Positions 2,398-62,133 of a DNA stretch of 64,000 nucleotides are shown here, piece after piece. Location of the stretch: the NCBI GenBank assembly GCA_024277355.1, contig JAJRVL010000011.1, positions 34,155 to 98,154 on the forward strand, read 5' to 3'. Positions within the stretch are counted from its first letter, which is position 1; every line of letters starts with the position of its first letter. The notes under the pieces were generated by a model that saw only the letters and a program-made list of their open reading frames with translations, was not told where the DNA came from and made no database searches. This DNA comes from an archaeon (lineage in GTDB: Archaea; Iainarchaeota; Iainarchaeia; Iainarchaeales; 1-14-0-10-31-34). The translations under genes and the position numbers were made by a program.

Positions 2398-3507
2398 TTA
2401 ATTTTCCCTGAAATCCAATAAAACTTTGTTTTTAGTTAAAGCAATTAACTCTATTTCTTTTTTATTTTGTTTTAAGTAACTATTAATTTTTTCTTTTATT
2501 TCTTTATCATTTAATCCTTTAGAAAAACCTTTTTTTGCTGAATCAATTATGTCCTGAATAATTAAATTATTTGAATAAATTGTTTCTGCTTTTTTCCTGT
2601 ATTCTTCTATTTCTTTTTCAAGTTTTTTTCTATGAGTTAACTGCTGTTCAAAACTATTCTGTAAGGCAATTAGTTTTTTTGGTTTTTTTTCAGGAATTCT
2701 TTGTTTAAAAAATTCTTTTGAATAAAATTCATCTAAAAAAGAATTAACTGAATCTTTTTCTTTAAAGTCTTTAACTAAAGCTAATTTTAACGGAAGAATT
2801 AATTTTTCTTTTCCTTTTTGGATTTCAATTGGATTTGGTTCTTTTAATAAATACATTTTTTTTATTTCATCAAAAACTTTTTTTATTTCTTTTTCAGTTA
2901 TTTTTTCTTTTTTCAGTTTTAACTTAAAAAAAACTTCTTCAGCTAAAATTGATGGAATTTCAATTGACCCCATAACAGAAGAAAAAGCATTATTTTCTTT
3001 CTTTAAATTTTTCTTAAATTTTTCTGTGAATTCTTTAAAAGACATTCCTTTTGGATTAAGTTTTCCTGATTCAGGAAAAACATAAATTTGTTTTTTTTCA
3101 ATTTTTCTTTTTTCTTCTTTTTTTAAGGCAGAAATAATCTCAAGACTTTTATCTGTTAAAATAATATTCTTATTTGCAAAAAATTCAACTATAAGAAAAT
3201 AATCCTGCAGTTCAAATACAACTATTCTGTCAGAATTATGCTGTTCTATTGATGAGATTTTTTTTCCTTCAATTCTTTTCCTTAAAAAAGCACCAAAACC
3301 CGAAGTCTGTTTTCTTGCATCAATCTTGTAATCAGAAAAAAACACTGCTTCAGGGAAAAGTAAAAGATTTTTTGTTCCTTGTTTTGTTCTTAATTTTAAC
3401 TTGAATTTATCTGAATCAAGTTCTTGGAGTTTATTTATATAAGACTCTTTAAGTAAAGGTTTTAATTCCTGCAACAGACAAGTTAAAGTTAAATTCAATA
3501 AGTGCAT
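2398..3507 (-). CDS. NFACT-N (FbpA/Rqc2-like) domain protein, short form
   Basis: 369 aa. N-terminal block ...FGAFLRKRIEGKKISSIEQHNSDRIVVFEL matches the NFACT-N signature (P.F.mLLRK.L.G..I..I.Q...DRI). It lacks the long C-terminal part of canonical Rqc2. Confidence 0.6.
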   Translation of the reverse strand: MHLLNLTLTCLLQELKPLLKESYINKLQELDSDKFKLKLRTKQGTKNLLLFPEAVFFSDYKIDARKQTSGFGAFLRKRIEGKKISSIEQHNSDRIVVFELQDYFLIVEFFANKNIILTDKSLEIISALKKEEKRKIEKKQIYVFPESGKLNPKGMSFKEFTEKFKKNLKKENNAFSSVMGSIEIPSILAEEVFFKLKLKKEKITEKEIKKVFDEIKKMYLLKEPNPIEIQKGKEKLILPLKLALVKDFKEKDSVNSFLDEFYSKEFFKQRIPEKKPKKLIALQNSFEQQLTHRKKLEKEIEEYRKKAETIYSNNLIIQDIIDSAKKGFSKGLNDKEIKEKINSYLKQNKKEIELIALTKNKVLLDFREN

Positions 3508-4267: not shown

Positions 4268-6967
4268 ATGGAAACAGACCACATAAAAATTGCCGAAAAA
4301 TGGCAGGAAAAATGGAAAAAAGAAAAAATTTTTGAAGTTAAATCTGACTTAAAGAAAAAAAAATATTATGTTTTAGAAATGTTTCCATATCCTTCAGGAA
4401 AACTGCATATGGGGCACGTAAGAAATTACTCTATTGGAGATTCTTTAGCCAGATTTAAGAGAATGCAGGGATTTAATGTTTTATATCCTACTGGTTATGA
4501 TGCTTTAGGTTTGCCTGCAGAAAATGCCGCAATAAAAGGCAGAGTTAACCCAAAAAAATGGACTTATGAAAAAATAAACGAAATGAAATCACAGCAAGAA
4601 ATGCTTGGGTTTAGCTATGATTGGAATAGAAGTTTTGCTACAGCCGATACTGATTATTATAAATGGAATCAATGGTTATTCAGAGAATTTTATAAAAAAG
4701 GTTTAGCATACAAAAAAAAATCAAATGTAAATTGGTGTGATGACTGCGGAACAGTTTTGGCAAATGAACAAGTAATTAATGGAAACTGCTGGAGATGTAA
4801 AAATCAAGTTATTGAAAAAGAATTAGACCAATGGTTTTTGAAAATCACAGAGTATGCAGACGAATTGCTTGAAGATTTAAGTAAGCTAAAATACTGGCCT
4901 GAAAGAGTTAAATTAATGCAAAAAAACTGGATTGGAAAAAGTCATGGAATAAATATTTTATTTAAAGTCAAAGATACAGAATTTGTTTTGCCTGCTTTTA
5001 CTACAAGATGCGATACTTTGTTTAGTGTGACTTTTGTTGTTATGGCCCCTGAAAGCCCTTGGGTTGAAAAATTAGTTAAAGGAACAAAATATGAAGAAAA
5101 AATAAAAAAAATAATTGATGAAATAAAAAAACAAACAATAATTGAAAGGACAAGTGAAACAGGAAAAGATAAGATTGGGTGTTTTACAGGAAAATATGCA
5201 GTTAACCCTGCAAATGGAGAAGAAATTCCAATTTGGATTGCAAATTTTGCTGTTGGTTCTTATGGAACAGGAATAGTAATGGCTGATGCTCATGACAAAA
5301 GAGACTTTGAATTTGCAAATAAATATGAAATTCCATTAAAATTTGTTATTTCAAAAGATGGAAAAAAAACTGATGCAGGCAAAGCAAAACAAGCTTATAC
5401 AGAAAACGGAATTTTATTTAATTCAGGAAAATTTTCAGGAATGCAGAATTTAGAAGCATTACCAAAAATAGCTGACTGGCTTGAAGAAACAAAAGGCGGA
5501 AAAAAAACAGTTAATTACAAGTTAAGAGACTGGTTAATTTCAAGGCAGAGGTTTTGGGGAACTCCAATTCCAATAGTTTACTGTAATAAATGCGGAATAC
5601 AATTAGTTCCTGAAAAAGAGCTTCCAGTTAAATTGCCTGAAAACGCTGAATTTACTGGAAAAGGAAATCCTCTTGACAAAGTAAAAGAATTTGTTGAAAC
5701 AAACTGTCCTAAATGCAAAGGAAAAGCCAAAAGAGAAACAGACACAATGGATACTTTTTTTGATTCAAGCTGGTATTATTTAAGATATTGTTCACCTAAA
5801 TCAGACAAAATATTTGACAAAGAAGCAGATTACTGGATGCCTGTAGACCAATATATTGGAGGCATTGAACATGCAATACTTCATTTAATGTATGCAAGAT
5901 TTTTTACTAAAGCAATAAAAGACTTAAAATTACTTAAAATAAATGAACCATTTAAAAGATTATTAACGCAGGGAATGGTGTTAAAAGACGGAAAAGCAAT
6001 GAGTAAAAGTTTAGGAAATGTAGTTGATCCTGGAGAAATAATAACTAAGTTTGGAGCAGATACTGCAAGAGTATTTATTTTATCTGTAAGCAATCCTGAA
6101 AGCGAAATGGAATGGGATGACAAAGGAACTGAAAACATCTATAAATTTTTAAATAAAATTTATTCACTTACAGAAGACAATAAAGAAAAAATAAATAAAA
6201 AAGAAGAAAAAAAAATTCAATTAAATTCAAAGACAAAGCTTTTGCAGTCAAAAATTCAAAGAATTATAAAAAACACAACTAACTTTTTAGAAAAACTGGA
6301 AATGAATAAGGCTGTAGCAGAATTAATGAAATTAACAAACGAATTACATAAATTTAACGAAAAAGAAAGCAAAGTTTTTTCTGACGGAGTTAAAGCATTA
6401 ATTTTAATGCTAAATCCTTTTGCCCCGCATTTAAGCGAAGAATTATGGGAAAAAATTAATGAAAAAAGTTTTTCAAGTTTAGAAAAATGGCCTGAATTTG
6501 ATTTAAAGAAAATTAATTTAACTGCAGAACAACAGGAAGAATTTGCTGAAAACTTAAGAGAAGACATAATCCAAATAAAAGAATTAGTAAAAAAAGACAA
6601 AATTGAAAGAATGAAAATTTTTATTGCTCCTGAATGGAAATGGAGTTTATATAAAAAATTATTTAAAGAAAAAGAAAAAACAAAAAATAAAAGAATTGAG
6701 TTTGGTTTAGCAATGAAAAAAGCAATGGAAACAGAAGAAGGAAAAAAGCATGCAAAAGAAATTAAAGGTTTTGTTCAGGTTTCAGTTAAGAAATTAAATG
6801 AAGCACAGGAATTAACCGAAATAAATGAAGAAAAAACATTAAATGAAAATATTGAAGAATTAAAAAAAGAGTTTAACACAGAAATTGAATTAATTAAAGC
6901 AGAAAAAAGTTCAGAAAAAAAAGCAGGAAATGCTTTTCCATTAAAGCCGGCTATACTAATTGAGTGA
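4268..6967 (+). CDS. leuS: leucyl-tRNA synthetase, bacterial type
   Basis: 899 aa. HIGH motif [19 protein letters not shown] and the KMSKSLGN motif. The N-terminus aligns almost residue for residue with bacterial LeuRS ([20 protein letters not shown]...), not archaeal LeuRS. Confidence 0.9.
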
Positions 6968-7037: not shown

Positions 7038-7526
7038 ATGATTTGTTTTATTGCATTAATTGTTTTTGCGATTTTGGGAATTTTTTCTGCTAAATACAGA
7101 GAATATGCTAAAGAAGCATTTGACTGTGTTTTTAGAAGAGTTACCTTAAGAAAATGCAATACTGCTTTTGATAAAAAAATGAAAATGAAGTTAACAGGGA
7201 AACTAATGAAAATAAGTCCTAAAGCAGGAGGAACTGTATTTAAGCACTTTGAATTAATTTCATGGTTTTTTACTTTGCTTACAATAATAAGTTTTGTCTA
7301 TGCCGCAGCAGGAGTATATAACTTTGTAGTATATGATAACTGTGAAGGGCCAAATGCAACTGCCAGTTGTATTTACTCTGAATTAACCGGAAGTGCTGAA
7401 ACTGTTTCCTGCGGTTCACAGCATTGTGCTGATACAGGATGCAATTGCGATGCAGGATGCGATGAAAGCAATAATTTTGCTGAATGTGATGGGAACTGTG
7501 ATTGTGTTAAAGAGGTTTGCGGCTAA
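7038..7526 (+). CDS. membrane protein with Cys-rich C-terminal (putative metal-binding) tail
   Basis: 162 aa with two TM helices. C-terminus CGSQHCADTGCNCDAGCDESNNFAECDGNCDCVKEVCG. The stop is immediately followed by the ATG of the HypC-like ORF. Confidence 0.4.
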   Translation: MICFIALIVFAILGIFSAKYREYAKEAFDCVFRRVTLRKCNTAFDKKMKMKLTGKLMKISPKAGGTVFKHFELISWFFTLLTIISFVYAAAGVYNFVVYDNCEGPNATASCIYSELTGSAETVSCGSQHCADTGCNCDAGCDESNNFAECDGNCDCVKEVCG

Positions 7527-7751
7527 ATGTGTGTTAATATTCCTGCTTTAATTGAAAAAGACGGAAAAATCGCAGAAGTCAAAATAGGCAAAAAAACAAT
7601 TAAAGTATTTAATTTTATTAAAGCAAAAAAAGGCGATTATGTTTATCTAAACGGCAGCTCAATTGTTGAATTAATTGAAAAAGGAACAGAAAAAGAAATA
7701 ATTAAAGCTTATTCTTTGAAAAGAAAAAAAAAGAAAAAATTACTTAATTGA
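7527..7751 (+). CDS. hypC: HypC/HupF-family small protein
   Basis: 74 aa. N-terminal MCVNIP matches the MC(L/I)(A/G)(I/V)P signature. KKGDYVYLNGSSIVELIEK aligns with GDYVLVHVGFAIEKI of HypC/HybG. Confidence 0.5.
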   Translation: MCVNIPALIEKDGKIAEVKIGKKTIKVFNFIKAKKGDYVYLNGSSIVELIEKGTEKEIIKAYSLKRKKKKKLLN

Positions 7752-20659: not shown

Positions 20660-22180
20660 ATGAAAGAAAAAGTTTTAGAAACATATAAAGTAAAATCAAT
20701 TGAAACAGAAATAGAAGTAAATATTATTGAAAGAGAAAAAGAAGTAGTAAGAATTTATTTTTTAAATTTTCCTGAATTTGGAGCAGGAACAAAAGCCGTA
20801 TTAAAAAATTTAAAAAGAAGCATTATAACTGATTCAACAATTCAGGCAGAAAAAATGATGGATCCTAATTTTGTTGATTCACTTAAAAGAAAATTTCAGG
20901 GAAGAGCAGAAAAAATACTTGAAAAAGAACTTCCAAATATAGCTGAAGGCTCAAAAAGTTTGTTAATAGGATTATTATTAGAAGAAATGCTTGGATTAGG
21001 CAAATTAGAGTTTTTATTAAATGACGGAAACATTGAAGAAATAGTTGTAAATACTGCAACTGAACCAGTATGGATTTATCATAAAGGATATGGCTGGCTG
21101 AAAACAAATGTTTTTATTACTCCTGAAAAAGAAATACAAAATTATGCAAGTATTATTGCAAGAAGAATTGGAAAACAAATTACAATATTAAATCCTTTGC
21201 TTGATGCACATTTAATTACAGGAGACAGAGCTAATGCAACTTTATTTCCTATTTCAAGCAAAGGAAACACTATTACAATAAGGCGTTTTAGAAGAGAACC
21301 ATACACTATAACTGATTTTGTTGAAAACCGAACACTTAACACCGATATAATGGCTTTAGTATGGCTTGCAATGGAATATGAATTAAACATTATTTTTTCA
21401 GGAGGAACAGGTTCAGGAAAAACCACTTCATTAAATGTTTGTCTGCCTTTTATTCAGCCAAACCAAAGAATTTTAAGTATAGAGGACACAAGAGAACTTT
21501 CACTTCCAGAATATCTCCACTGGGTTCCATTAACTACAAGAGAACCAAACACTGAAGGAAAAGGCGAAGTAACAATGCTTAATTTATTAGTTAACTCTTT
21601 AAGAATGCGTCCAGACAGGCTGATTGTAGGAGAAATCAGAAGGCAAAGAGAAGCAGAAGTATTATTTGAAGCAATGCATACAGGACATTCAGCTTACACT
21701 ACTTTTCACGCTAACACAGCAGAAGAAACAATCAGAAGATTAGTTAATCCTCCAATTGAAATTCCAAAAACAATGCTTGATTCAGTTCACTTAAATATAG
21801 TAATGTTTAGAAACAGAAGATTAAATGTAAGAAGAGTGCTTCAGGTAGCTGAATATGTAACTGAAAGAAGAGGAGACACAGAAGAAGTAAAAGCAAATAT
21901 TTTATATCGATGGAAAGGAGCAACAGATACAATAGAAAAACATTCTGAAAGCATTAGATTATTTGATGAATTAGGATTACATACAGGTTTAAGCAAACAG
22001 GAAATGAACAATGAATTAAAAACAAAAAAGAAAATTCTTGACTGGATTACATCAAACAAAATTCGTTCAATACAGCATGTTGGAAGGATAATGGCAGATT
22101 ATTATATGAATAAAGACAACATAATTGAATTAGCAGAAAAAAACAAAAAACCAGATTATATTTTTGAGGAGAAAAAATGA
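20660..22180 (+). CDS. type IV pilus/archaellum-type assembly ATPase (FlaI/PilB/TadA family)
   Basis: 506 aa. Walker A FSGGTGSGKTTSLN, Asp box and Walker B region, His box (EAMHTGHSAYTTFHAN), typical of secretion NTPases. Confidence 0.85.
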   Translation: MKEKVLETYKVKSIETEIEVNIIEREKEVVRIYFLNFPEFGAGTKAVLKNLKRSIITDSTIQAEKMMDPNFVDSLKRKFQGRAEKILEKELPNIAEGSKSLLIGLLLEEMLGLGKLEFLLNDGNIEEIVVNTATEPVWIYHKGYGWLKTNVFITPEKEIQNYASIIARRIGKQITILNPLLDAHLITGDRANATLFPISSKGNTITIRRFRREPYTITDFVENRTLNTDIMALVWLAMEYELNIIFSGGTGSGKTTSLNVCLPFIQPNQRILSIEDTRELSLPEYLHWVPLTTREPNTEGKGEVTMLNLLVNSLRMRPDRLIVGEIRRQREAEVLFEAMHTGHSAYTTFHANTAEETIRRLVNPPIEIPKTMLDSVHLNIVMFRNRRLNVRRVLQVAEYVTERRGDTEEVKANILYRWKGATDTIEKHSESIRLFDELGLHTGLSKQEMNNELKTKKKILDWITSNKIRSIQHVGRIMADYYMNKDNIIELAEKNKKPDYIFEEKK

Positions 22181-23071: not shown

Positions 23072-23467
23072 ATGTATGAAAAAATTAGTTCAATGATTCC
23101 AAGAAATGTCTTAAAGGCATTTAAAAACGAATTAACATATGCAGGAATAGACTTAGATGAAAAAAACTTTGTTGGTTTTGTGTTTGTTTTTGGTTTTGCA
23201 ACAGCAATTGCAGCAGGATTTGCTTTAAATTTCTTTTTTTCACTTCATTTTTTTATTGGATTTATTACAGGATTTATTTTAACTGTAGGGGGAATTTATT
23301 ACCTGCTTAATCAGGCAGGAGACAGCAAAGCAAGATTTGTAGAAAAAATTCTGCCTGACGCACTTCAATTAATTGCTTCAAACATGAAGTCAGGATTAAC
23401 AACAGAAAAAGCATTATTGGTTTCATCAAGACCTGAATTTGGTGCATTAGCAATAGAATTAAAATAA
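23072..23467 (+). CDS. TadC/FlaJ-like platform protein, N-terminal fragment (ends at an in-frame TAA)
   Basis: 131 aa. Ends ...ILPDALQLIASNMKSGLTTEKALLVSSRPEFGALAIELK* in the middle of a T2SSF domain. It is in the same frame as the next ORF. Confidence 0.5.
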   Translation: MYEKISSMIPRNVLKAFKNELTYAGIDLDEKNFVGFVFVFGFATAIAAGFALNFFFSLHFFIGFITGFILTVGGIYYLLNQAGDSKARFVEKILPDALQLIASNMKSGLTTEKALLVSSRPEFGALAIELK

Positions 23468-23479
23468 GCAAGCAAAAAA

Positions 23480-24055
23480 ATGATGACTGGAGAAAGAACT
23501 GAAACAGCCTTAAAAGAAATGACTTTAAAAATAAGATCAAAAATTTTCAGTAAAACAGTCTGGCTTATAACAGAAGGAATTAATTCAGGCGGAGAAATGG
23601 CTAACTTGCTTTTACAGTTGTCTAATGATTTAAGAGAGCAGAATGCATTACAGGAAGAAGTAAAAGGAAATGTTTCAATGTATGTAATTTTGATTTTTTT
23701 TGCTTCAGTTATTGGCGCACCATTAATGTTTGGAATAAGTTCTTTTATTGTACAGATAATGGCAAAACAAGCAGGTGGTTTATCAGGATTATCAGAAGAA
23801 AGTTTAGCTTTAGCTTCATCTCAAGGAGCATTTTCATCTGGAACAGGAATAAGTATTACAGCTGACTTTATTGTAATGTTTTCAATGATAACTTTGTTTG
23901 TTATTTCAGTTTTTGGTTCACTTACAATAGGAATAATAAGTACTAGAAGTGAAAAAGGCGTAATAAAGAATATTCCTTTAATGTTAATTTCATCTTATGT
24001 GATTTACTTTATTGTTTTAACTGTATTACAATCAACTTTTAGTTCATTGGTTTAA
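23480..24055 (+). CDS. TadC/FlaJ-like platform protein, C-terminal fragment
   Basis: 191 aa. Continues the same T2SSF domain (MMTGERTETALKEMTLK...GINSGGEMANLLLQLSNDLREQ), paralogous to the 22177 ORF, then 3 TM helices. Confidence 0.5.
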   Translation: MMTGERTETALKEMTLKIRSKIFSKTVWLITEGINSGGEMANLLLQLSNDLREQNALQEEVKGNVSMYVILIFFASVIGAPLMFGISSFIVQIMAKQAGGLSGLSEESLALASSQGAFSSGTGISITADFIVMFSMITLFVISVFGSLTIGIISTRSEKGVIKNIPLMLISSYVIYFIVLTVLQSTFSSLV

Positions 24056-43968: not shown

Positions 43969-46602
43969 TTACTTTTTTTCTTTTATTTTTGCCTGAGCTG
44001 CAGCTAATCTTGCAATTGGAACCCTAAAAGGCGAACAAGAAACATAACTTAAACCTAAAGAATGACAGAATTCAATTGAAGCAGGATCTCCTCCGTGTTC
44101 CCCGCAGATTCCTAACTTAATATTTTCTTTTGCTTTTTTTGCATGACCTACTGCAATTTCCATTAATTTTCCTACTCCTGAAATATCAACTGAAACAAAA
44201 GGAGAAACAGAAAAAATTTTTTCTTCAAAATATTTATTGAAAAATTTTCCTTCAACATCGTCTCTAGAAAAACCAAAAGTAGTCTGAGTTAAATCATTTG
44301 TTCCAAAAGAAAAAAAATCCGCATGCTCTGCAATTTCATCTGCAGTTAAAGCAGCTCTAGGTAATTCAATCATTGTCCCAATAGGAATATTATTTTCAGG
44401 AATTAAATCAGATAAAACTTTTTCTACTTTTTTTCTTGACAATTCAAGTTCTTTTGCTATTCCAACTAAAGGAATCATTATTTCAGGTTTAGGTGAAAGC
44501 CCTTTATTTTTCAAATTTAATGCAGCTTCAGCTATTGCTCTGGTTTGCATTTCAATTATTTCAGGATAAACTATTCCAATCCTGCATCCTCTAAAACCAA
44601 GCATTGGGTTAACTTCATGTAATTCTTTTATTTTAATTAATAAAGCTTTTTTTACTGCAATTTCTTCTAAAACGTCAGAGTTATTTAAATCTCTTTTTCT
44701 TTTTAATCGGTTTATTTCTCTTAATAATTTTTCTTTTGAAGGCAAAAATTCATGTAAAGGAGGATCAATTAAACGAATTGTAACAGGAAAGCCATCCATT
44801 GCCTCAAAAATTTCTTCAAAATCTTTTCTCTGCATTTTTTCTAATTCATCTAAATGTTTTTTTCTTTCATCAAAAGAAGAACTTAAAATCATTTTCTGAA
44901 CAATAGGAAGTCTTTTAGCGTCAAAAAACATGTGTTCAGTTCTGCATAAGCCGATTCCTTTAGCTCCTAATTCAACTGCTTTTTTTGCGTCTTTTGGAGT
45001 ATCAGCATTAGTTCTTACTCCTAAAGTTTTAATTTCATCACTCCATTCAAGAATAGTAGAAAAAAACTTATATGGTTCAGGTTCAATTAATTTAATTTCC
45101 CCTAAAAAAACTTTTCCTGTTGTACCGTCAATTGAAATAAAATCTCCTTGATTTAATTCAGTTCCCTCAACTTTAAGGGTTTTAGTTGAATAATCAATTT
45201 TTATTTCTTCGCATCCAACAACACAAGGTTTGCCCATTCCTCTTGCAACAACAGCAGCATGAGAAGTGTTTCCTCCTCTGCAAGTTAAAATTCCTTTTGA
45301 TGCAATCATTCCATGAATATCTTCAGGAGAAGTTTCATGTCTGACTAAAATTACGTTTCCTTTTTCGCTTTCTTTTTCAGCTGTATTTGCATCAAAAAAC
45401 ATTCTCCCTGATGCAGCCCCGGGAGAAGCATTTAACCCTAAAGCAATTTCATTTAATTTTTGTTTTGGGTCAATTCTTTTATGGAGCAGTTGATTTAAAT
45501 CTAAAGGATTAATTCTCAGTAAAGCTTCTTGTTTTGAAATTAGTTTTTCTTCAACTAATTCAACTGCAATTCTAACTGCTGCCTGACCGGTTCTTTTTCC
45601 GTTTCTGGTCTGCAGTAAAAATAATTTTTTGTCTTCAATAGTAAATTCAGTGTCCTGCATGTCTTTGTAGTGTTTTTCTAATTTTTCGCATACAGACTTA
45701 AATTCTTCAAAAACTTCAGGCATTACTTCATTTAATTCAGCAATTATTCTTGGAGTACGGATTCCTGCAACAACATCCTCGCCTTGAGCATTTAACAAAA
45801 ATTCTCCATATAATTTTTTTATTCCATTAGAAGGGTTTCTGGTAAAACACACTCCTGTCCCTGAAGTTTCGCCTAAATTTCCAAAAACCATTTCCTGAAT
45901 TACTACTCCAGTTCCCCATGAATCAGGAATTTTATTTAATTTACGATAAGTTATTGCTCGTTTATTATTCCATGAATTAAATACAGCCTTAACCGCTAAA
46001 ATTAATTGTTGTTTTGGTTCTTCAGGAAAAGTGTTTTTTGTTTCTTGTTCAACTAAATTTTTGTATTCTTTAATTATTTTTTTTAGTGATTCAGCAGTTA
46101 AATCACAGTCTTTTGTTGTTTCTGTATTTTGTTTTTCTTTTTCTAAGATTTCTTCAAATTTATCGTGTTCTAAATTTAATACAACATTAGAAAACATCTG
46201 AATAAATCTTCTGTAAGAATCTAATACAAATCTTTCATTTTTTGTTTTTTCAATCATTGATTTAATTGTTTTTTCATTTAATCCAAGATTTAATACTGTA
46301 TCCATCATTCCAGGCATTGAGGTTCTTGCACCACTTCTAACTGAAACTAATAAGGGGTTTTCTCCTGAAAACTGTTTTTTTGTTTGTTTTTCTAATTGCA
46401 TTAAAGAGTCATTTAATTCTTGTTCTAATCCTTCAGGGAAATCATTTGAATCAAAAAAATTAATACAAGCTTGAGTTGAAATCACAAAACCTTTAGGGAC
46501 AGGCAAACCTAATTTAGTCATTTCACATAAATTGCTTCCTTTTCCTCCTAAAAGGTTTTTCATTTCTTTGCTTCCTTCCTCAAAAAAATAAATATACTTC
46601 AA
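43969..46602 (-). CDS. ppdK: pyruvate, phosphate dikinase
   Basis: 877 aa. N-terminal LLGGKGSNLCEM, phospho-His domain GGNTSHAAVVARGMGKPCVVG, C-terminal PEP-utilising TIM barrel with CGE. Confidence 0.9.
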   Translation of the reverse strand: MKYIYFFEEGSKEMKNLLGGKGSNLCEMTKLGLPVPKGFVISTQACINFFDSNDFPEGLEQELNDSLMQLEKQTKKQFSGENPLLVSVRSGARTSMPGMMDTVLNLGLNEKTIKSMIEKTKNERFVLDSYRRFIQMFSNVVLNLEHDKFEEILEKEKQNTETTKDCDLTAESLKKIIKEYKNLVEQETKNTFPEEPKQQLILAVKAVFNSWNNKRAITYRKLNKIPDSWGTGVVIQEMVFGNLGETSGTGVCFTRNPSNGIKKLYGEFLLNAQGEDVVAGIRTPRIIAELNEVMPEVFEEFKSVCEKLEKHYKDMQDTEFTIEDKKLFLLQTRNGKRTGQAAVRIAVELVEEKLISKQEALLRINPLDLNQLLHKRIDPKQKLNEIALGLNASPGAASGRMFFDANTAEKESEKGNVILVRHETSPEDIHGMIASKGILTCRGGNTSHAAVVARGMGKPCVVGCEEIKIDYSTKTLKVEGTELNQGDFISIDGTTGKVFLGEIKLIEPEPYKFFSTILEWSDEIKTLGVRTNADTPKDAKKAVELGAKGIGLCRTEHMFFDAKRLPIVQKMILSSSFDERKKHLDELEKMQRKDFEEIFEAMDGFPVTIRLIDPPLHEFLPSKEKLLREINRLKRKRDLNNSDVLEEIAVKKALLIKIKELHEVNPMLGFRGCRIGIVYPEIIEMQTRAIAEAALNLKNKGLSPKPEIMIPLVGIAKELELSRKKVEKVLSDLIPENNIPIGTMIELPRAALTADEIAEHADFFSFGTNDLTQTTFGFSRDDVEGKFFNKYFEEKIFSVSPFVSVDISGVGKLMEIAVGHAKKAKENIKLGICGEHGGDPASIEFCHSLGLSYVSCSPFRVPIARLAAAQAKIKEKK

Positions 46603-46743
46603 TTCAAATCCCCCTTAAACAAAATCATGTAAAACTTCATAAAAAGTATGAAAACTTAGATAAAGAAAGCTTTTAAACCAAATGTTTAACTAAAAAAAGC
46701 AATTCATTTAAACTATTAAGAACTGAATATTACAGGAGATTAA

Positions 46744-47760
46744 ATGAAAAAAATAAGTATTTTAGGTTCAACCGGAAGCATCGGAACACAGACTTTAGAT
46801 GTAGTAAGACAGCATTCTGATGAATTCAAAGTTTTAGGGTTAGCTGCGTTTAATGAAATAGACAAAATAATTGAACAAATTAATGAATTTAAGCCGGAAA
46901 AAGTCTGTTTGTTTGATGAAAAATCAGCTGAAGAGTTAGCAAAAAAAACTGATGTTGAAGTTGTTTCAGGGATGCAGGGATTAAAAGAAATTGCAGTAAT
47001 AGAAGAAATTGAGCAGACAATTGTTTCAGTTGTAGGTGCAATAGGAATTGAGCCGACAATGCATGCAATAAAAAAAGGAAAAAATATTGCTTTAGCAAAT
47101 AAAGAAACTTTAGTTTCAGCAGGACAGCCAATAATGAAAGAAGTCAAAAAACAAGGAATTGTATTAATGCCAATTGATTCAGAGCATTCAGCTATATTTC
47201 AATGTTTGAATGGAGAGGAAAGAAAAAAAGTTTCAAAAGTTTTAATTACTTGTTCTGGCGGGCCGTTTAGAGGGAAAAAAATTTCTGATTTTTATAATGC
47301 AACTCCTGAACAGGCTTTAGGACATCCAACATGGAGTATGGGTTCAAAAATTACAATTGATTCTTCAACTTTAATGAATAAAGGCCTGGAAGTATTGGAA
47401 GCAAAATGGCTGTATGATTTAGAATTAGAAGAAATTGAAGTAGTAATTCATCCTCAAAGTTTAATTCATTCAATGGTTGAATTTACTGACGGGAGTATTA
47501 TGGCTCAAATTGGAACACACGATATGCGTACTCCCATCCAATATGCTTTAACTTATCCAAAAAGATTAACAAATGAATTTCCAAGATTAAATTTATTTGA
47601 AAACAATAATTTAACTTTTGAAAAACCTGATTACAAAAATTTTCCGTGTTTAGGTTTTGCTTTTGAAGCAGGAAAACAAAAAGGAACTTTAGCTTCAGCA
47701 ATGAATGCAGCAAATGAAATTGCTGTCTGGAGTTTTTTAGATAAAAAAATCAAGTACTGA
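46744..47760 (+). CDS. dxr: 1-deoxy-D-xylulose 5-phosphate reductoisomerase, interrupted by an in-frame TGA (C-terminal 41 codons continue to 47889)
   Basis: ILGSTGSIGTQTLDV NADPH motif. NAANEIAVWSFLDKKIKY*EIPEIIKQVMDLHK aligns across the stop with E. coli Dxr [32 protein letters not shown]. Confidence 0.75.
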   Translation: MKKISILGSTGSIGTQTLDVVRQHSDEFKVLGLAAFNEIDKIIEQINEFKPEKVCLFDEKSAEELAKKTDVEVVSGMQGLKEIAVIEEIEQTIVSVVGAIGIEPTMHAIKKGKNIALANKETLVSAGQPIMKEVKKQGIVLMPIDSEHSAIFQCLNGEERKKVSKVLITCSGGPFRGKKISDFYNATPEQALGHPTWSMGSKITIDSSTLMNKGLEVLEAKWLYDLELEEIEVVIHPQSLIHSMVEFTDGSIMAQIGTHDMRTPIQYALTYPKRLTNEFPRLNLFENNNLTFEKPDYKNFPCLGFAFEAGKQKGTLASAMNAANEIAVWSFLDKKIKY

Positions 47761-47998
47761 GAAATCCCGGAAATAATTAAACAAGTAATGGATTTACATA
47801 AAAATACTTTAAATCCTTCTTTAGAGGATTCACTTGAAGCAGATAAAAAAGCAAGAGAAACAGCAAAAAAAATAATAGAAGAAAAATGAGAAAAAATGAA
47901 AAAACAGCAGAGTATTCAGTTATTCAGTAATTGATAATTTAATAAACAAAACAAAAAGAAATTTAAGCATTAAAAGAGTTTAATTACAAAGTGATGAA

Positions 47999-48688
47999 AT
48001 GAATTATGCAGTAATTTGTGCCGGCGGAAAAGGAATAAGAATGGACGCCGGAAAAAACAAAGTGTTCTTAAAAATTAAAGGCAAAGAAATAATTGCAAAA
48101 ACTATTTTAGTGTTTGAAAAAGCAAAAGAAATAAACGGAATAATTATTTCAATTGGAAAGAATGACATAAAAGAAATACAGGAAATAATTGAAAAAGAAA
48201 AATTTGAAAAAATTAAAGCAGTAATTGAAGGTGGAAAAGAAAGACAGGATTCCGTTTATAATGGAATAAAAAAATTACAGGAATTTGCAGAAAAAGATGA
48301 CGTGATTTTAATTCATAATGCAGCAAACCCTTTTGTAAAAGAAGAAACAATAAACAACTGCATTAAAGCAGCAAAAGAATTTGGAGCAAGTGTTGCAGCA
48401 CAAAAAGTAAAAGACACAATAAAAAAAGTTGATGAAGATTTATTAGTTAAAAAAACATTAAACCGAAAAGAATTATGGCAAATGCAGACTCCGCAGGCAA
48501 TAATTAACCACATTGCATTAAAAGCATTTGAAAAAGCTTATTCAGAAAACTTTTATGGAACAGATGACGTTCAGTTAGTTGAAAGAATTCATGGAAAAAT
48601 AAAAATAGTTGAATGTTCATATAAAAACATTAAAATTACAACAAAAGAAGATATAGAATTAGCAGAAAGAATTTTAGATGAAAACTGA
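47999..48688 (+). CDS. ispD: 2-C-methyl-D-erythritol 4-phosphate cytidylyltransferase
   Basis: 229 aa. N-terminal AVICAGGKGIRMDAGKNKVFLKIKGKEII matches the IspD P-loop (AAGxGxRM...K.FL). Confidence 0.75.
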   Translation: MNYAVICAGGKGIRMDAGKNKVFLKIKGKEIIAKTILVFEKAKEINGIIISIGKNDIKEIQEIIEKEKFEKIKAVIEGGKERQDSVYNGIKKLQEFAEKDDVILIHNAANPFVKEETINNCIKAAKEFGASVAAQKVKDTIKKVDEDLLVKKTLNRKELWQMQTPQAIINHIALKAFEKAYSENFYGTDDVQLVERIHGKIKIVECSYKNIKITTKEDIELAERILDEN

Positions 48689-48703
48689 TTAAAATGAAAA
48701 AAA

Positions 48704-49555
48704 TTGTCAGGAAATTGTTTAAAAGAAAAAAAAACCCCTAAAAAAATAAATATTCCCAGAAGAAAGTTTCTCAAAACCATAACTATCGGAACTACATCAA
48801 TATCTTTAGCTTATCTTTTGAGCTGTTTTCCAATTAAGCTATCTAAACTGCCTATAGAAAAAACCCATCAAACTACATTACTTGGAATGATTCATTTTAC
48901 AGACATGAAATCAAGCAAACAAGAAATTATTAATAAAACAAAAACCAATAAAAATACTTTAAAAAGCTACAATAAAGCACTTGAAGCCATTAAAAGACTG
49001 CCTGCTGGTTCAAGAATATTAATTGAAGATGCTACTCCTTTTTCAGTTAACGGAAAAAAGTATTACAGTATTTTTTCTGTTTTATCTGAAAAAGCAAGAG
49101 CAAAAGGATTAATAGTTGAAAATTATCTTCCAAGAAAAGCAATATTCAGGAGAATTGACGCATACAGTTATTTGATTGAAACATTTTATAAAAATAAAAA
49201 TCCAGAAATAATTAAAGCAAGAAAAAAAGAACTAGCTAAAAAATACAATCTTAGTTCAATAAAAAACATTAATTCTGTTGAAGAAGCAAGCACAAAATTA
49301 TATCAATATTTTGAACATATGACAAATTTTTTAATTAAATCTTACAGAAAAAAACCAGCATTAATTATTGCAGGAGATTTACATGTTGCTGCATCAAAAA
49401 AATGGCTGAAAAATGCTGAAGATATAACTCCTAAAAACACCAGAAAATACACTGAAAAAATCATGGCAAATTCAAAACAAGAATTTAAAGAACTAGTTGA
49501 ATTATTTGAAAAACACAGAGAAAAAATGGTTAAAAAATTAAAAGTTAACGGATGA
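48704..49555 (+). CDS. hypothetical Tat-signal lipoprotein
   Basis: N-terminus contains PRRKFLKTITIGTTSISLAYLLSC, a twin-arginine motif (RRxFLK) plus lipobox. Start is uncertain (TTG in track; upstream ATG at 48694 is out of frame by one across an A9 run). Confidence 0.4.
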   Translation: MSGNCLKEKKTPKKINIPRRKFLKTITIGTTSISLAYLLSCFPIKLSKLPIEKTHQTTLLGMIHFTDMKSSKQEIINKTKTNKNTLKSYNKALEAIKRLPAGSRILIEDATPFSVNGKKYYSIFSVLSEKARAKGLIVENYLPRKAIFRRIDAYSYLIETFYKNKNPEIIKARKKELAKKYNLSSIKNINSVEEASTKLYQYFEHMTNFLIKSYRKKPALIIAGDLHVAASKKWLKNAEDITPKNTRKYTEKIMANSKQEFKELVELFEKHREKMVKKLKVNG

Positions 49556-49597
49556 ATTAATAGTTAGATAAAAAAAAAAGCAACAATATAAAAAGGA

Positions 49598-49611
49598 TTT
49601 TATACATAATT
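49598..49611 (+). promoter_or_regulatory. promoter-like motif ttttatacataatt ending ~13 bp before the ispF ATG (leaderless-type spacing)
   Basis: TATA-like element begins 25 nt upstream of ATG 49624. Confidence 0.45.
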
Positions 49612-49623
49612 TTAGTGAGAGTT

Positions 49624-50145
49624 ATGCCATTTAGAGTAGGATTAGGACAAGATTCCCATAGGTTTTCTCACGTGCATGAAAAAAGACCTTTGATTTTAGG
49701 CGGAATAGAAATTAAAGATTGTTTGGGTTTAAAGGGAAATTCAGATGCAGATGTAATACTTCATGCATTATTTAATTCTCTTGCACAATTAATTGGCTGG
49801 AAAAGTTTAGGAAGCCATGCAGACAAAATGGTTAAAGAACAAGGAATAACTGATTCAAAAGAATACTTAAAAGAACCATTAAAAAAACTAAAAGAAATGA
49901 ATTATGAAATTACAACTGTAAGCATCACACTTGAATGCAAAAAACCAAAAATTGATCCGGTATCAAATGAAATAAGAACAAGTGTTGCAAAAATTCTTGG
50001 AATAAAAAAAGAACAAGTAGGAATAATTGCAACAACAGGAGAAAGATTAACTGCTTTTGGAAGAGGGGAAGGAATACAAGCATTTACAGTGATAACAGCA
50101 ATACATAAAGACATCAAAAAATTTACAGGAAAAAAAAATAAATAA
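49624..50145 (+). CDS. ispF: 2-C-methyl-D-erythritol 2,4-cyclodiphosphate synthase
   Basis: MPFRVGLGQDSHRF...LILGGIEI...GNSDADVILHAL matches the IspF metal-binding motifs (D.H..H ... SDADV.LHA). Track start is GTG at 49615. ATG at 49624 is preferred. Confidence 0.85.
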   Translation: MPFRVGLGQDSHRFSHVHEKRPLILGGIEIKDCLGLKGNSDADVILHALFNSLAQLIGWKSLGSHADKMVKEQGITDSKEYLKEPLKKLKEMNYEITTVSITLECKKPKIDPVSNEIRTSVAKILGIKKEQVGIIATTGERLTAFGRGEGIQAFTVITAIHKDIKKFTGKKNK

Positions 50146-50238
50146 ATAAATTCGTTCTTTGACGTAATATGCTTGTTAAATCAACGTAAGGTTTAAATAG
50201 TTTGAGCTATAATATTGGTATTTCGGGAAAAGATTTTT

Positions 50239-52038
50239 ATGGATAAAAATGAATTAAATTTTGGAAAATTACTGGAAAAAATTGATTCTCCAGCAGACTT
50301 AAAAAAACTAAAAGTTGAAGAATTAGAAGAATTGTCTAAAGAAGTAAGAGAAGTTTTAATTAAAACCTGTTCAGCTAACGGAGGACATATTGGGGCAAAT
50401 TTAGGAGTAGTTGAATTAAGCATTGCATTGCATTATGTTTTTAATTCTCCTCAAGACAAATTTTTGTTTGATACAAGCCATCAAAGTTATACTCACAAAT
50501 TATTGACTGGAAGGAAAAAAGATTTCCATACAATCTGCACTCCAAAAGGAATTCCAAGATTTACAGTAAGAAATGAAACTCCATTTGATAACTGGAGTGC
50601 AGGCCATGCTTCAACTGCATTAAGCGGAGCAATGGGAATGGCTGAAGCAAGAAAAACAAACAAACAAGAATATGAAGTAGTAGCAGTAACAGGCGACGGA
50701 GCATTAACCGGCGGAATGTGTTATGAAGCACTAAATAATATCGGGTATAACCAGACAGATGTAATTTTAATTTTAAATGACAACAAAATGAGCATTTCTC
50801 CTAATGTAGGTGCAATGTATAAACATTTGAAAAAGCTGTCAATGTTTGCAGACGAAAAAATTCCACGAAGAGAAGTAGGAACAATATTTGAAAAATTAGG
50901 AATTCAATATTACGGGCCGGTTGACGGCCATAACGTAAAAAAATTAGTTGAAGAATTAGAAAATTTAAAAGACTTAAAAGGACCAAAATTGCTTCATGTA
51001 TTAACCATTAAAGGAAAAGGAATGGAATACATGGAAAACGATAAAGCAACATGGCATGAGCACCCTGCATTTGATGTTGAAACCGGCCAGCCAATAAAAA
51101 AAGGACCTGCAAAAATAGAAAAAATTGCAGTTCAGGCTTTAATGGAATTAGCAGAACAAGATAAATCAATTGTGGGAATTACAGCAGCAATGCCTGCAGG
51201 AACCGCTTTAATTGAATTCAGCAAAAAATTCCCTGACAGATTTTATGATGTAGGAATAGCAGAAGAACACGCAGTTACTTTTGCAGCAGGATTAGCTGCA
51301 GAAAAAACAAAACCTTTTGTAGTAATTTACAGTCCTTTTTTGCAGAGAGCTTTTGATCAGGTAGCACATGATGTTGCATTACAGGATTTGCCGGTAAAAT
51401 TATTGGTTCCAAAAGCAGCAATAACCGGAGACGGCCCAACACAAGGAGGAATCCTTGACTTCAGTTATCTGAGAATTATTCCAAACTTAATTGTAATGGC
51501 GCCAAAAGATGAAAACGAATTAAGACATATGATTAAAACCGCACAAGAATACAATAAAGGACCAATTAGTGTCAGATACCCAAAAGGAAATGCTTTAGGA
51601 GTAGAATTAGATAAAGAAATGAAATCAATTGAAATAGGAAAAGCTGAAATGATTAAAGAAGGAAAAGACATTTCTTTGATTAGTATTGGATTTATGTTAA
51701 AAGAAACAGTTGAAGCTGCTGAGATTTTAAAGAAAGAAGGGATTGATGCTGAAGTAATTAATTCAAGGTTTGTTAAACCATTAGATAGAAAAATGATTTC
51801 TGAAAGCCTGAAAAAAACAGGAAAAGGAATCACAATAGAAGAAAATATTCTTCCCGGAGGGTTTGGTTCAGCTGTCTTGGAAATGCTTGAAGCTAAAGGA
51901 CTAAATGAAGTTGTATTGCAGAGAATAGGCGCACCAGACGAATATATTGGTTATGACAGTCCAAATGAAATCAAAAAACAGTTTGGAATGGATGCAGAAA
52001 GCATAGTAAAAAAAGTTAAAAAAATGCTTGGAAAATAA
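50239..52038 (+). CDS. dxs: 1-deoxy-D-xylulose-5-phosphate synthase
   Basis: GGHIGANLGVVELSIALHYVFNSPQDKFLFDTSHQSYTHKLLTGRK aligns closely with bacterial DXS. TPP-binding GDGALTGG. Track start is TTG at 50215. ATG at 50239 is preferred. Confidence 0.9.
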   Translation: MDKNELNFGKLLEKIDSPADLKKLKVEELEELSKEVREVLIKTCSANGGHIGANLGVVELSIALHYVFNSPQDKFLFDTSHQSYTHKLLTGRKKDFHTICTPKGIPRFTVRNETPFDNWSAGHASTALSGAMGMAEARKTNKQEYEVVAVTGDGALTGGMCYEALNNIGYNQTDVILILNDNKMSISPNVGAMYKHLKKLSMFADEKIPRREVGTIFEKLGIQYYGPVDGHNVKKLVEELENLKDLKGPKLLHVLTIKGKGMEYMENDKATWHEHPAFDVETGQPIKKGPAKIEKIAVQALMELAEQDKSIVGITAAMPAGTALIEFSKKFPDRFYDVGIAEEHAVTFAAGLAAEKTKPFVVIYSPFLQRAFDQVAHDVALQDLPVKLLVPKAAITGDGPTQGGILDFSYLRIIPNLIVMAPKDENELRHMIKTAQEYNKGPISVRYPKGNALGVELDKEMKSIEIGKAEMIKEGKDISLISIGFMLKETVEAAEILKKEGIDAEVINSRFVKPLDRKMISESLKKTGKGITIEENILPGGFGSAVLEMLEAKGLNEVVLQRIGAPDEYIGYDSPNEIKKQFGMDAESIVKKVKKMLGK

Positions 52039-52173
52039 TTACAAAAAGAATAACAGCTAATTATAAAAGAATAAAAATAATAGAAATAAAAAATTAAGGA
52101 AAAAAATAAAACTAATAAATTACTAATTAATCAAAAACTAATTAAAAAAAAGAAAAGTTGATTGCTAAAGCAA

Positions 52174-52425
52174 TCAAACACCAATTTTTAATTTTGAAGG
52201 CTGAATAATAAAACCCCAATCAGCTACTGTAAATTTTAATGGAGAACCGCCATCTCCGCCACCCATCAAAATTACAGGAACAGAATTGCTTTCTTCGTCA
52301 TCTTTAGGAACAGATGTTACTCCATCTTCAATTTCATCCCCAACAACACCAATTTGATTCCACACTGCAGAAGTAAACCCTGCAAAAGCAATTAACAAAA
52401 CTGCTAAAATTAATAATTTTTTCAT
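52174..52425 (-). CDS. small secreted hypothetical protein
   Basis: 83 aa. Signal peptide MKKLLILAVLLIAFAGFTSA, then an acidic/Gly-rich body. Confidence 0.4.
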   Translation of the reverse strand: MKKLLILAVLLIAFAGFTSAVWNQIGVVGDEIEDGVTSVPKDDEESNSVPVILMGGGDGGSPLKFTVADWGFIIQPSKLKIGV

Positions 52426-52490
52426 TTAATAAAACCTCCAAATAAACAAAACAATTAGTATATGTGTGTTTTACTTTAAAAAGTTTTAGT

Positions 52491-53330
52491 TTACAAAAAA
52501 TCCCTTGATTTTTTCCATTCAATTTCAGCTTTCTCACAAAAAGAAATAATTTTTTGTTTTTGTTCTGAAACTAAACCTTTCCAGTCAAACAAAACAAAAT
52601 CAACTTTTTCAGAAGTCTGTTTAATCATTTGTTCAAATAAAACAAAATCAACTTCATTAACATAATATTTAGATAAAATATGAGAAACCGCAATATCTGT
52701 TCTGGCCATTACTTTAGAAAAAGAAGGACAATAATGGGTTCCGCCTACTCCAATTGCTGTCTTGAAATTTGAATTAAAATTAAAAAAAGAATCCATAATA
52801 GAAAAAGCAATTATTTTTCCTGCCTGCTTATTTTTCCATTCGGTTTCATTGCTTCCAATTTCAATAAAAACTGCAGGTTTAGACAAAAAAGGGCCGTGAT
52901 GAGTTTGCTCCATTAAAACAGGCCAGTCAAAATTTTCTTTTTTTGTTTGTTCAAGTAAATTCAAAAAAAAGTTTTTCATTACTAAAGAAGAAACTGAAAC
53001 TAAAGTTTTTTCTTTTCCGCCTAAATCAGCTTTACTAAAATTTCCTATTGGGTGAACAGAAAAAGTTTTTTGTCCTGATTCACTTGAATGCTTTGAAGCA
53101 AAAATAAACAAATCAGTTTCTAATTCATCTAAAAAATCTGCGGTAACTTGTTTTTCATTAATTAAAATTAAATCAAAAATTTGTTTTTCATTAGAAAAAG
53201 AATAAATTGAATTTGAATTAAATTGTTTTTCTGTTTTCTTAAAATCAAAGCATTCAATTAAATTAGAATAAATGTTTAATCCTGCTAAATCTGTTTTAGA
53301 AACAATAATTGAAATTTTATTAAAGTTCAT
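52491..53330 (-). CDS. dtdA: D-aminoacyl-tRNA deacylase, archaeal type
   Basis: 279 aa. Overall collinear similarity to DtdA (…SKTDLAGLNI...LIECFDF...IFASKHSS...TFSVHPIGN...EQTHHGP...). Confidence 0.65.
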   Translation of the reverse strand: MNFNKISIIVSKTDLAGLNIYSNLIECFDFKKTEKQFNSNSIYSFSNEKQIFDLILINEKQVTADFLDELETDLFIFASKHSSESGQKTFSVHPIGNFSKADLGGKEKTLVSVSSLVMKNFFLNLLEQTKKENFDWPVLMEQTHHGPFLSKPAVFIEIGSNETEWKNKQAGKIIAFSIMDSFFNFNSNFKTAIGVGGTHYCPSFSKVMARTDIAVSHILSKYYVNEVDFVLFEQMIKQTSEKVDFVLFDWKGLVSEQKQKIISFCEKAEIEWKKSRDFL

Positions 53331-58792: not shown

Positions 58793-59818
58793 AAGGAATT
58801 AAAAATAAATTCTGCTTGGTCAAGAAATAGCTTTAAGAAACAAACTGTTATGTAGACAGAATATACATAATTATTAGTCTTTTTTGGCCAAAAAAGAGCC
58901 CTCAACATACTAAAACCCTTTATTTCAGCCAGATAAGCCAATATAGCCAAACCCATCAAAAATGGCTTTAAATATGCCTTAAAAAAACTCTGCTAAAAAA
59001 ATCTTATTTTAGAGTATTTCGTTAATTTAAGCCAAATTAAACTGAATTTAATAGATTTACTGGCTTTTCTTATAGATCGGCAAAGCAATTCAACCCCTCA
59101 CAGATTTCCAAAAACCTCTTTGGAAATTTCCTTGATTTTTCTGGGTTTTTTCTTTATTTTTTCAACTATTTCTAATTAAGGAATTTTTTGTTTATTTTTG
59201 TTTTTTCTTAGAAGTTTTCCAGAAAATTTTTGAAAAGTTTTATTTTTTTAAGCCACTTCGCAAACTCCCTTTCTGGATTTTTTGAGCCACATCTGACTCC
59301 GCCTATTTTGTATACATAACTCTTGATCTTGCTGGCTTCTCCAAACAACCAACTTACCCGCCCCCACACTTCCACTAAAGTTCAGTTTTTCACACTTTTC
59401 AACAAAGTCCCCTCTATGAAAACACGGATAATGTAGATTATACGTGGATTCATGAGTAAATAAAGGCTCAAACAAACGCTTTAATCAACCAAACTAAACC
59501 GCTCGCCTTAAAGATAAGCGATTTTAACGGGTTTTAAGCCAGTTTTTGGTTTTGCTGCCTAAAAATTAGAAGTTAACTTTGAATAGTTAATTTTGTTTTT
59601 GATCTGTTAGAGGAACACAGACAATAACTTATCAAAACCAGAGTTATGTATAAGACTAAATTTGTTTTAGGTTTCTATATGTTTTACACACAATTTTGCT
59701 TTAATTGCTATAATATTATGTTTTTGTGTTTTATTTAAATCAGCAAATCAATTCCACAAAATTATCTGTAAATTGAATTTTTATCTAAAAATTGAAATAA
59801 AAGAACTATGAAAATAAA

Positions 59819-61134: not shown

Positions 61135-62133
61135 ATGTTTGCATCTGAAATAAATAAATTATTAAATTTAGTTTCCAGAAGCTTTACGCTTTGTATTCCG
61201 CGTCTTCCAAAACAAGTCAGAAACGAAGTAGGAAACTTTTATCTTTTATGCAGGTATGCAGACTCAATCGAAGACTCAAAAATTTCATTTACTGACAAAA
61301 AAAAGTACTTTAAAAGGTATTTAACCTGCCTTAAACAAGAAGACTTAAACAAAATGAACACGTTATCGGCTGAATTAACTCCTAAAATTCTAAACAAAAA
61401 TGATCAAAAAATGTTTAAGCGGTTTTCTAAAGTATTTAAGCAGTTTGTGGGTTTTGACGAAAAATCAAAAAAAATTGCTTTAAAATGGCTAAAAGAAATG
61501 ACTAAAGGAATGGCTAAATACTCTAAAAAAGAAATTGAAAATTTTTTGGATTTAGATAATTATTGTTATTATGTTGCAGGCACAGTTGGTTTTTATATTA
61601 CGCAAATCACCGACCATAAATTTAATTTACATAAATATGATTTTTTGTTATCTAAATGCGAAGATTTTGGTTTATTACTTCAGAAAGTAAATATTATACG
61701 GGATTTTTCAAAAGACTATGAAAATGGAAAAACCTTCTGGCCTAAATCACTTTTTAAAAAACACAACATGGAAATAAAAGATGCATTTAAAAATAAAAAT
61801 GACTTAAAAAGAAAACAAATTTTGTCTGAAATGATTAAAAGCACTGAACCGCATATTAAAAATACGCTTGAATACTTAAAAAATTTGCCTGCTGAATTAA
61901 AATTTGTCTGGGCAATTCCTTTTTATATGGCAATTCCAACACTGTTAAAGTGTTATGGTAACGACGAAATTTTTGATCCGCAAAAAAAAGTAAAAATTGG
62001 AAAAATCCAGACAACTCAAATAATTTCATCTTTAAACAAAAAAATTTCTTCAGAACAATTTTTTGAAGAATATCTTATTGCTTTAAATGAAAAAAACTCA
62101 CAAGGACTAAATTTAAATCTTCAACTAAAATAA
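61135..62133 (+). CDS. squalene/phytoene synthase-family (head-to-head trans-isoprenyl diphosphate) enzyme
   Basis: 332 aa. YLLCRYADSIED (first Asp-rich region) and YCYYVAGTVG...NIIRDFSKD (second region) match the SQS_PSY family. Confidence 0.65.
   Translation: MFASEINKLLNLVSRSFTLCIPRLPKQVRNEVGNFYLLCRYADSIEDSKISFTDKKKYFKRYLTCLKQEDLNKMNTLSAELTPKILNKNDQKMFKRFSKVFKQFVGFDEKSKKIALKWLKEMTKGMAKYSKKEIENFLDLDNYCYYVAGTVGFYITQITDHKFNLHKYDFLLSKCEDFGLLLQKVNIIRDFSKDYENGKTFWPKSLFKKHNMEIKDAFKNKNDLKRKQILSEMIKSTEPHIKNTLEYLKNLPAELKFVWAIPFYMAIPTLLKCYGNDEIFDPQKKVKIGKIQTTQIISSLNKKISSEQFFEEYLIALNEKNSQGLNLNLQLK

Follow-up and report, generated by a model that had tools for sequence, protein, structure and literature searches.

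The dxr gene in the stretch of DNA analysed in this study (64 kb, hereafter the window) is interrupted by an in-frame TGA. This is a commonplace nonsense change of one base, in a gene and a pathway that are both known, and it involves no new decoding phenomenon. One base has been substituted in a codon that ancestrally specified Gly, the coding sequence beyond the stop is undecayed, and TGA serves as a normal stop codon elsewhere in the window. On balance, the stop is better regarded as an artefact or as an unfixed or rare allele than as a fixed feature of the lineage, an opinion that we hold with little more than even confidence.

Direct reading of the sequence places the start of dxr at the ATG at 46744, followed by 338 codons and by the TGA as codon 339; beyond it, 42 in-frame sense codons lead to a second TGA. 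Read through the first TGA, the frame comprises 381 codons, which is the normal size of a Dxr, the closest homologs having 381–389 aa. The 338 codons as written carry matches to PF02670 (residues 4–127), PF08436 (141–224), and PF13288 (256–338), and the last of these, the DXPR_C model, is covered only from profile position 1 to 80 of 115 (105 bits); adding the tail extended the match to positions 1–114 and raised the score by 33 bits. The read-through protein scored 146.6, 131.6, and 138.5 bits for the three domains, respectively, far above the curated cut-offs, and aligned collinearly over its full length with Dxr structures that have been solved, that of E. coli (1k5h) among them. The NADPH-binding motif GSTGSIG (G8–G14) and residues D145, S146, E147, H148, and E216 occupy columns that are invariant among the window protein and 17–39 homologs. 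The region of D145, E147, and E216 presumably corresponds to the metal- and substrate-binding residues D150, E152, and E231 of E. coli Dxr. By each criterion tested, the gene belongs to the Dxr family, except for the last two helices, which lie beyond the stop as written. The in-frame TGA with the true C-terminus of Dxr beyond it, and the collinearity of the residues after the stop with E. coli Dxr, had been claimed in a sequence-only reading and were borne out by these data; the count of 41 residues after the stop given there should be 42. The features are collected in Table 1.

Table 1. Location of dxr, its premature stop, the neighbouring MEP genes, and the second interrupted gene in the window.
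Feature	Position	Strand	Remarks
TadC/FlaJ-like T2SSF gene with fresh in-frame stop	23072–24055	+	TAA at 23465–23467, codon 132
Shine-Dalgarno-like AGGAG	46734–46738	+	5 nt upstream of the dxr ATG; read from the sequence
dxr codons 1–338	46744–47757	+	NADPH-binding and catalytic domains, linker, and helices 1 and 2 of the C-terminal bundle
Premature TGA, codon 339	47758–47760	+	T at 47758, putatively G>T of an ancestral GGA (Gly) codon
Undecayed in-frame dxr tail, codons 340–381	47761–47886	+	Encodes the third and fourth helices of the bundle
Natural dxr stop, TGA	47887–47889	+	Relatives end within a few residues of the same point
Rest of the MEP cluster	47999–52038	+	All intact; full-length Pfam matches for ispD, ispF, and dxs
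ispD	47999–48688	+	Pfam IspD
Unknown ORF between ispD and ispF	48704–49555	+	283 aa, TTG start, no Pfam match
ispF	49615–50145	+	Pfam YgbB
dxs	50215–52038	+	Pfam DXP_synthase_N, Transket_pyr, and Transketolase_C

The ancestral state of codon 339 is evident from the relatives. The nearest homologs are full-length Dxr proteins, 77–84% identical to the window protein, from MAGs that carry the label "archaeon" or "Candidatus Diapherotrites archaeon". All 12 close relatives have Gly at the position of the stop (KIKY-G-EIPEII), Leu or Tyr occurs in homologs that are more distant, and E. coli Dxr has T. In the seven relatives with DNA available, the Gly codon is GGA in five, GGC in one, and GGG in one, and GGA is also the main Gly codon of the present genome (353 of 525). 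The Gly in the relatives and the prevalence of GGA among their codons indicate that the stop arose by a single G>T transversion at 47758.

A closer point of comparison was provided by a 161-aa Dxr fragment (P0242), encoded on a 655-bp ENA contig from an independent sample, which clusters with the window protein at an identity of at least 90% and matches its residues 199–359 at 150 of 161 positions (94%). This fragment reads ...FLDKKIKYGEIPEIIKQVMDLHKNTLNPS and thus has Gly at codon 339; the 20 residues after the Gly are all identical to the window tail, including L351 and T355, which are absent from the other relatives. A search with the C-terminal 122 residues of Dxr found nothing besides this fragment above 72% identity and no protein ending at KIKY. 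The alignment to orthologs of close relatives, which had been called for earlier, therefore gave Gly in all 13 (the 12 relatives and the fragment), and none of the 13 has a stop at codon 339.

The region beyond the stop has retained the character of a functional coding sequence. The tail has 12 positions at which the 12 relatives are invariant, and the window keeps every one of them; the residues unique to the window (4 of 42) fall within the range of intact relatives (0–6 of 42). The dN/dS of the tail between the window and its relatives was 0.09–0.27, the same range as between intact relatives, with synonymous sites near saturation. The gene has one disabling lesion only and does not have the features of a decaying pseudogene. 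Since the tail is undecayed, the stop must be far younger than the split from the 94%-identical strain, and an old pseudogenization of dxr is excluded. The sequence-only reading had offered nonsense mutation or pseudogenization, error, and read-through side by side; the event is now narrowed to G>T of a GGA codon, old pseudogenization has been eliminated, and nothing favours read-through.

Concerning the structural consequence, an AlphaFold2 model of the Dxr of a relative (P0001, 84% identical to and collinear with the window protein; pLDDT 94.7) has a C-terminal four-helix bundle formed by helices 302–312, 316–332, 340–351, and 360–382. The loop joining helices 2 and 3 contains codon 339, and the truncated product thus loses half of the bundle. 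The earlier suggestion to check a 338-aa Dxr for missing C-terminal elements led to the same answer: on this model, it is without helices 3 and 4, so that a complete bundle in one polypeptide is not encoded as written, the two missing helices being encoded intact past the stop. Dxr's C-terminal domain forms a four-helix bundle, which shifts together with the catalytic domain upon substrate binding, and the shortest natural Dxr has 356 aa (review PMC9782300). No relevant experiments in which Dxr was truncated at the C-terminus turned up in a search of the literature. Judging from the modelled structure, the 338-aa protein would probably be inactive or unstable.

A scan of the whole window for stops with coding-like sequence on both sides identified two true cases, dxr and, 24 kb away, a T2SSF gene interrupted by TAA. 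Translated through the TAA, the latter contains one T2SSF domain (profile positions 2–121 of 125), of which each fragment alone has only a part, and the sequence is undecayed on both sides of the stop. Its 14 close relatives (70–84% identity) are intact proteins of 311–330 aa with Glu (11), Gln (2), or Lys (1) at the site. As most relatives have Glu, and the codon is GAA in the Glu-containing relative for which DNA is available (L092), the simplest change is GAA>TAA, which is also a first-position G>T. Codons one G>T step from a stop (GGA, GAA, and GAG) make up about 13% of the codons of this genome. Because the two stop codons differ, a UGA-specific mechanism cannot explain both genes. A technical or very recent process accounts better than gradual decay or codon-specific recoding for two undecayed stops, each with a different stop codon, among about 55 genes.

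Other candidates from the scan were rejected. The stop near 7524 is immediately followed by the start of a separate HypC-like gene: an ORF for a Cys-rich membrane protein (7038–7526, plus strand) ends with TAA, and the same frame continues with a 74-aa HypC/HupF-like ORF (7527–7751, plus strand) that starts with MCVNIP and has a weak Pfam match below the cut-off (E = 4.6e-4), so that these look like two genes and not one broken gene. At 4159, only junk follows the stop. A short NFACT-family gene (2398–3507, minus strand; 369 aa) has no downstream continuation; it covers positions 3–361 of the 456-position NFACT_N profile, is abutted by a gene on the opposite strand, and is probably a naturally short form.

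In the reading that we favour, a G>T change at 47758 has turned the conserved Gly-339 codon GGA into TGA in an otherwise intact dxr, in an event effectively instantaneous on the evolutionary scale. With TGA decoded as a stop, the sequence as written encodes a 338-aa Dxr without helices 3 and 4 of the bundle. The stop itself would be a consensus error, introduced by sequencing, damage, or assembly, or else an allele in the minority that the assembler picked up, and the natural population would make the normal 381-aa Dxr. The undecayed sequence downstream, together with the Gly and the identical tail of the closest relative, makes it most likely that the stop is not fixed in the lineage. The presence of intact dxs, ispD, and ispF next to dxr also supports this reading, as it indicates that the pathway is not being lost, and so does the second, equally fresh first-position nonsense change in the otherwise fully conserved T2SSF gene. 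In microbial assemblies, many "pseudogenes" with internal stops are artefacts of the assembly, linked with coverage and with the assembler used (Cooley & Wright 2024, PMC11017572). The present case, a putative artefact, resembles these in that an isolated stop occurs in an otherwise perfectly conserved dxr, as a single-base difference from the nearest strain, with a second stop nearby; it differs from them in that frameshifts and other signs of poor assembly do not accompany it.

Some of the data run against an artefact. Besides the two stops, no frameshifts or other lesions were found in the approximately 55 genes checked, which speaks against an assembly of poor quality overall. The single-base amino-acid changes specific to the lineage, scored in eight genes, had no excess of G:C>T:A (6 of 84, versus 25 for G:C>A:T) and hence no broad signature of damage, in a comparison that is insensitive to recent events because of the long branch to the relatives. 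Searches for further copies of the locus were also made. According to a protein cluster look-up, one 111,364-bp NCBI contig is the sole location of the 338-aa Dxr, of IspD, and of the two T2SSF fragments, and exact-protein look-ups for the 338-aa Dxr, IspD, and a further protein (P0135) gave no contig. No other copy was found in JGI metagenome contigs, either with an exact 31-mer in which the stop base was left free or with the codon-degenerate peptide DKKIKY?EIPEIIKQVMD, and a protein search of genome contigs returned, among the matches listed, only distant bacterial Dxr of at most 54% identity.

The main alternative, which we regard as possible, though rather less than an even chance, is a genuine and very young loss of function, in which the population carries the TGA and its Dxr is truncated and probably inactive, either as a first step of pseudogenization or as a segregating null allele. 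DPANN archaea are thought to be host-dependent, and a real loss of dxr could therefore be tolerated, which argues against an artefact; on this account, the host-dependent archaeon can scavenge lipids or isoprenoids. The deposited sequence itself says that the gene is broken, and the rest of the assembly is clean. Moreover, G:C>T:A changes are a normal part of AT-biased mutation in a genome of 28% GC, and a nonsense allele in a pilus- or archaellum-type T2SSF gene could result from relaxed selection and drift acting on the reduced genome of a symbiont. However, the complete lack of decay downstream, the Gly of the closest strain, and the intact dxs, ispD, and ispF next door all weigh against such a loss, and the two stops are equally fresh, whereas ongoing gene decay should give lesions of mixed age. 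If the stop is real, the committed step of the bacterial-type MEP pathway has only just gone from this strain, with dxs, ispD, and ispF still in place, and the case would provide a small data point on the loss of lipid-precursor synthesis in host-dependent DPANN archaea.

A site-specific read-through or recoding of the UGA, by which near-cognate Trp, Cys, or Arg, or else Gly as in code 25, would be inserted and enough full-length functional Dxr produced, appears unlikely. The perfectly preserved tail would be expected under it, and the site lies in an inter-helix loop whose residue varies in distant homologs (G, L, or Y; T in E. coli), so that any inserted residue would probably be tolerated. 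In addition, the premature TGA is the only TGA stop in the window followed by G, besides the natural stop of dxr (also TGA-G); the bases after the other 17 are A (8), T (8), and C (1). The recent origin of the change, however, accounts equally well for the preserved tail, and the stop is not conserved, with a sense Gly codon in 13 of 13 close relatives. Folding of the RNA downstream of the stop (z = −0.12 and −0.39) and in the 3′ UTR (z = +0.24) was no better than that of shuffled sequence, which speaks against a stable stimulatory fold. Rfam scans at gathering and permissive thresholds gave only chance snoRNA and lncRNA matches (E > 2) and no SECIS family, and no tRNA gene, including suppressors, was found in the 64 kb. 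Finally, the second broken gene has a TAA, to which such a UGA-specific mechanism cannot extend. A general leakiness of termination, by which both nonsense alleles (the TGA of dxr and the TAA of the T2SSF gene) would still yield enough protein for purifying selection to act, would account for both genes being pristine downstream of their stops, but we consider it quite improbable. All of the readings other than an artefact or unfixed allele, a young null allele, and read-through carry, even taken together, a very small probability.

It is very hard to credit that dxr is a split gene, in which a tail peptide reassembles with the 338-aa body, or that it encodes a selenoprotein with UGA read as selenocysteine. 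An ATG (Met349) does occur at 47788, 10 codons past the stop; against its use as a start, no Shine-Dalgarno-like motif precedes it, unlike the start of dxr, the resulting peptide would begin inside helix 3 (340–351) and lack most of it, and no relative has a split dxr. As to selenocysteine, the homologous residue is Gly and not Cys, its position falls in a surface loop distant from the active site, and no SECIS-like element was found.

The use of TGA throughout the window bears on the last alternative, a genome-wide reassignment of this codon. The 55 non-overlapping ORFs of at least 120 aa end with TAA (33), TAG (4), or TGA (18). At the 17 TGA stops other than that of dxr, the genes terminate where homologs and domain models expect, Pfam models being matched up to the last positions, and the frame then stays open for only 2–27 further, non-protein-like codons; dxr is the sole case in the window of a TGA flanked by homologous coding sequence on both sides. 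No internal TGA was found in the long genes (PPDK, 877 aa; LeuRS, 899 aa; others of 915, 617, 593, and 588 aa). The ATGA overlaps at 9360, 16817, and 22177, which had been cited as evidence that TGA is a genuine stop, proved to be real gene junctions, and the accompanying judgement that genome-wide recoding is unlikely agrees with both the census and the long genes. The genetic code 25, in which UGA means Gly, is known from Gracilibacteria and Absconditabacteria, and the present case is like it in having UGA where homologs have Gly in an AT-rich, reduced genome. It differs in being a single instance, in that TGA is a true terminator in about a third of the genes, and in that the organism is archaeal by its nearest homologs. 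A reassignment of TGA (to Gly as in code 25, for which the alignment with Gly and the GC content of 28% might be quoted, or to Trp as in code 4) has next to no probability and is refuted within the window by the stop-codon census, since TGA read as sense would also fuse ispD with the next gene and add nonsense to many proteins, while GGA>TGA is a plain single-step route from the commonest Gly codon of the family.

With regard to annotation, the dxr entry should be flagged as carrying an internal stop that is possibly an error, and the data give no evidence for an alternative code or for a split or novel Dxr. The two fresh nonsense changes of the G>T type within 64 kb suggest caution in metabolic reconstruction from this assembly.

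The genomic context of dxr is well known. The gene order PPDK (minus strand), dxr, ispD, ORF, ispF, dxs, and DtdA (43969–53330 in the window) is common to the relatives L082–L089. Within a monophyletic, Woesearchaeota-type DPANN clade, the genes of the MEP pathway occur widely and lie together (Castelle et al. 2021, PMC8204110), and the presence in a DPANN-like genome of a bacterial-type MEP cluster with PPDK and an archaeal-type DtdA next to it is thus already on record (PMC8204110). The window Dxr resembles the Dxr of that clade (IspC, EC 1.1.1.267; PMC8204110) in its three-domain architecture, its bacterial type, and its 77–84% identity to the proteins of relatives; it differs in that the window copy alone has a stop at codon 339, all relatives being full length. 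The Pfam-scanned ORFs of the window did not include ispE, ispG, or ispH. The archaeal, DPANN-like nature of the window is apparent from an archaeal-type D-aminoacyl-tRNA deacylase, KaiC/DUF7504, a FlaI-type ATPase with two T2SSF genes, AMMECR1, and NFACT; glycogen-metabolism genes are also present, and the closest homologs belong to MAGs with the labels archaeon, Diapherotrites, or Micrarchaeota.

Several minor observations were made on the window and its relatives. In most relatives, the gap between ispD and ispF is occupied by an unannotated ORF of 138–150 aa. The dxr genes of L084 (5001–6149) and L086 (5001–6146) have identical DNA over the first 338 codons and about six differences in the last 42, and L086 has an extra 145-aa ORF (6153–6590) between dxr and ispD, as do L083, L087, L088, and L089; this ORF is absent from L082, L084, and the window. 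To judge from the sequences, the 3′ end of dxr in these relatives resembles a junction left by recombination or insertion.

A gene of the squalene/phytoene synthase family (61135–62133, plus strand) with a full-length SQS_PSY match lies downstream of the MEP cluster, at a distance of about 9 kb, and may possibly consume the product of the MEP pathway. Between the two, within a 1.4-kb stretch without a substantial ORF, a GC island on the minus strand (about 59250–59550) reaches 41–43% GC compared with 28% for the window; it is strongly G-rich on that strand, where its folding is somewhat better than that of shuffled sequences (z = −2.2, compared with −0.47 on the plus strand), matches no Rfam family or tRNA, and is possibly an unrecognised structured RNA. 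The FlaI/T2SSE ATPase is a 1000-aa protein with an intein (Intein_splicing and LAGLIDADG_3) in L090 and L091 (1–2091), and the orthologs in the window (20660–22180, 506 aa) and in L092 (508 aa) are without it.
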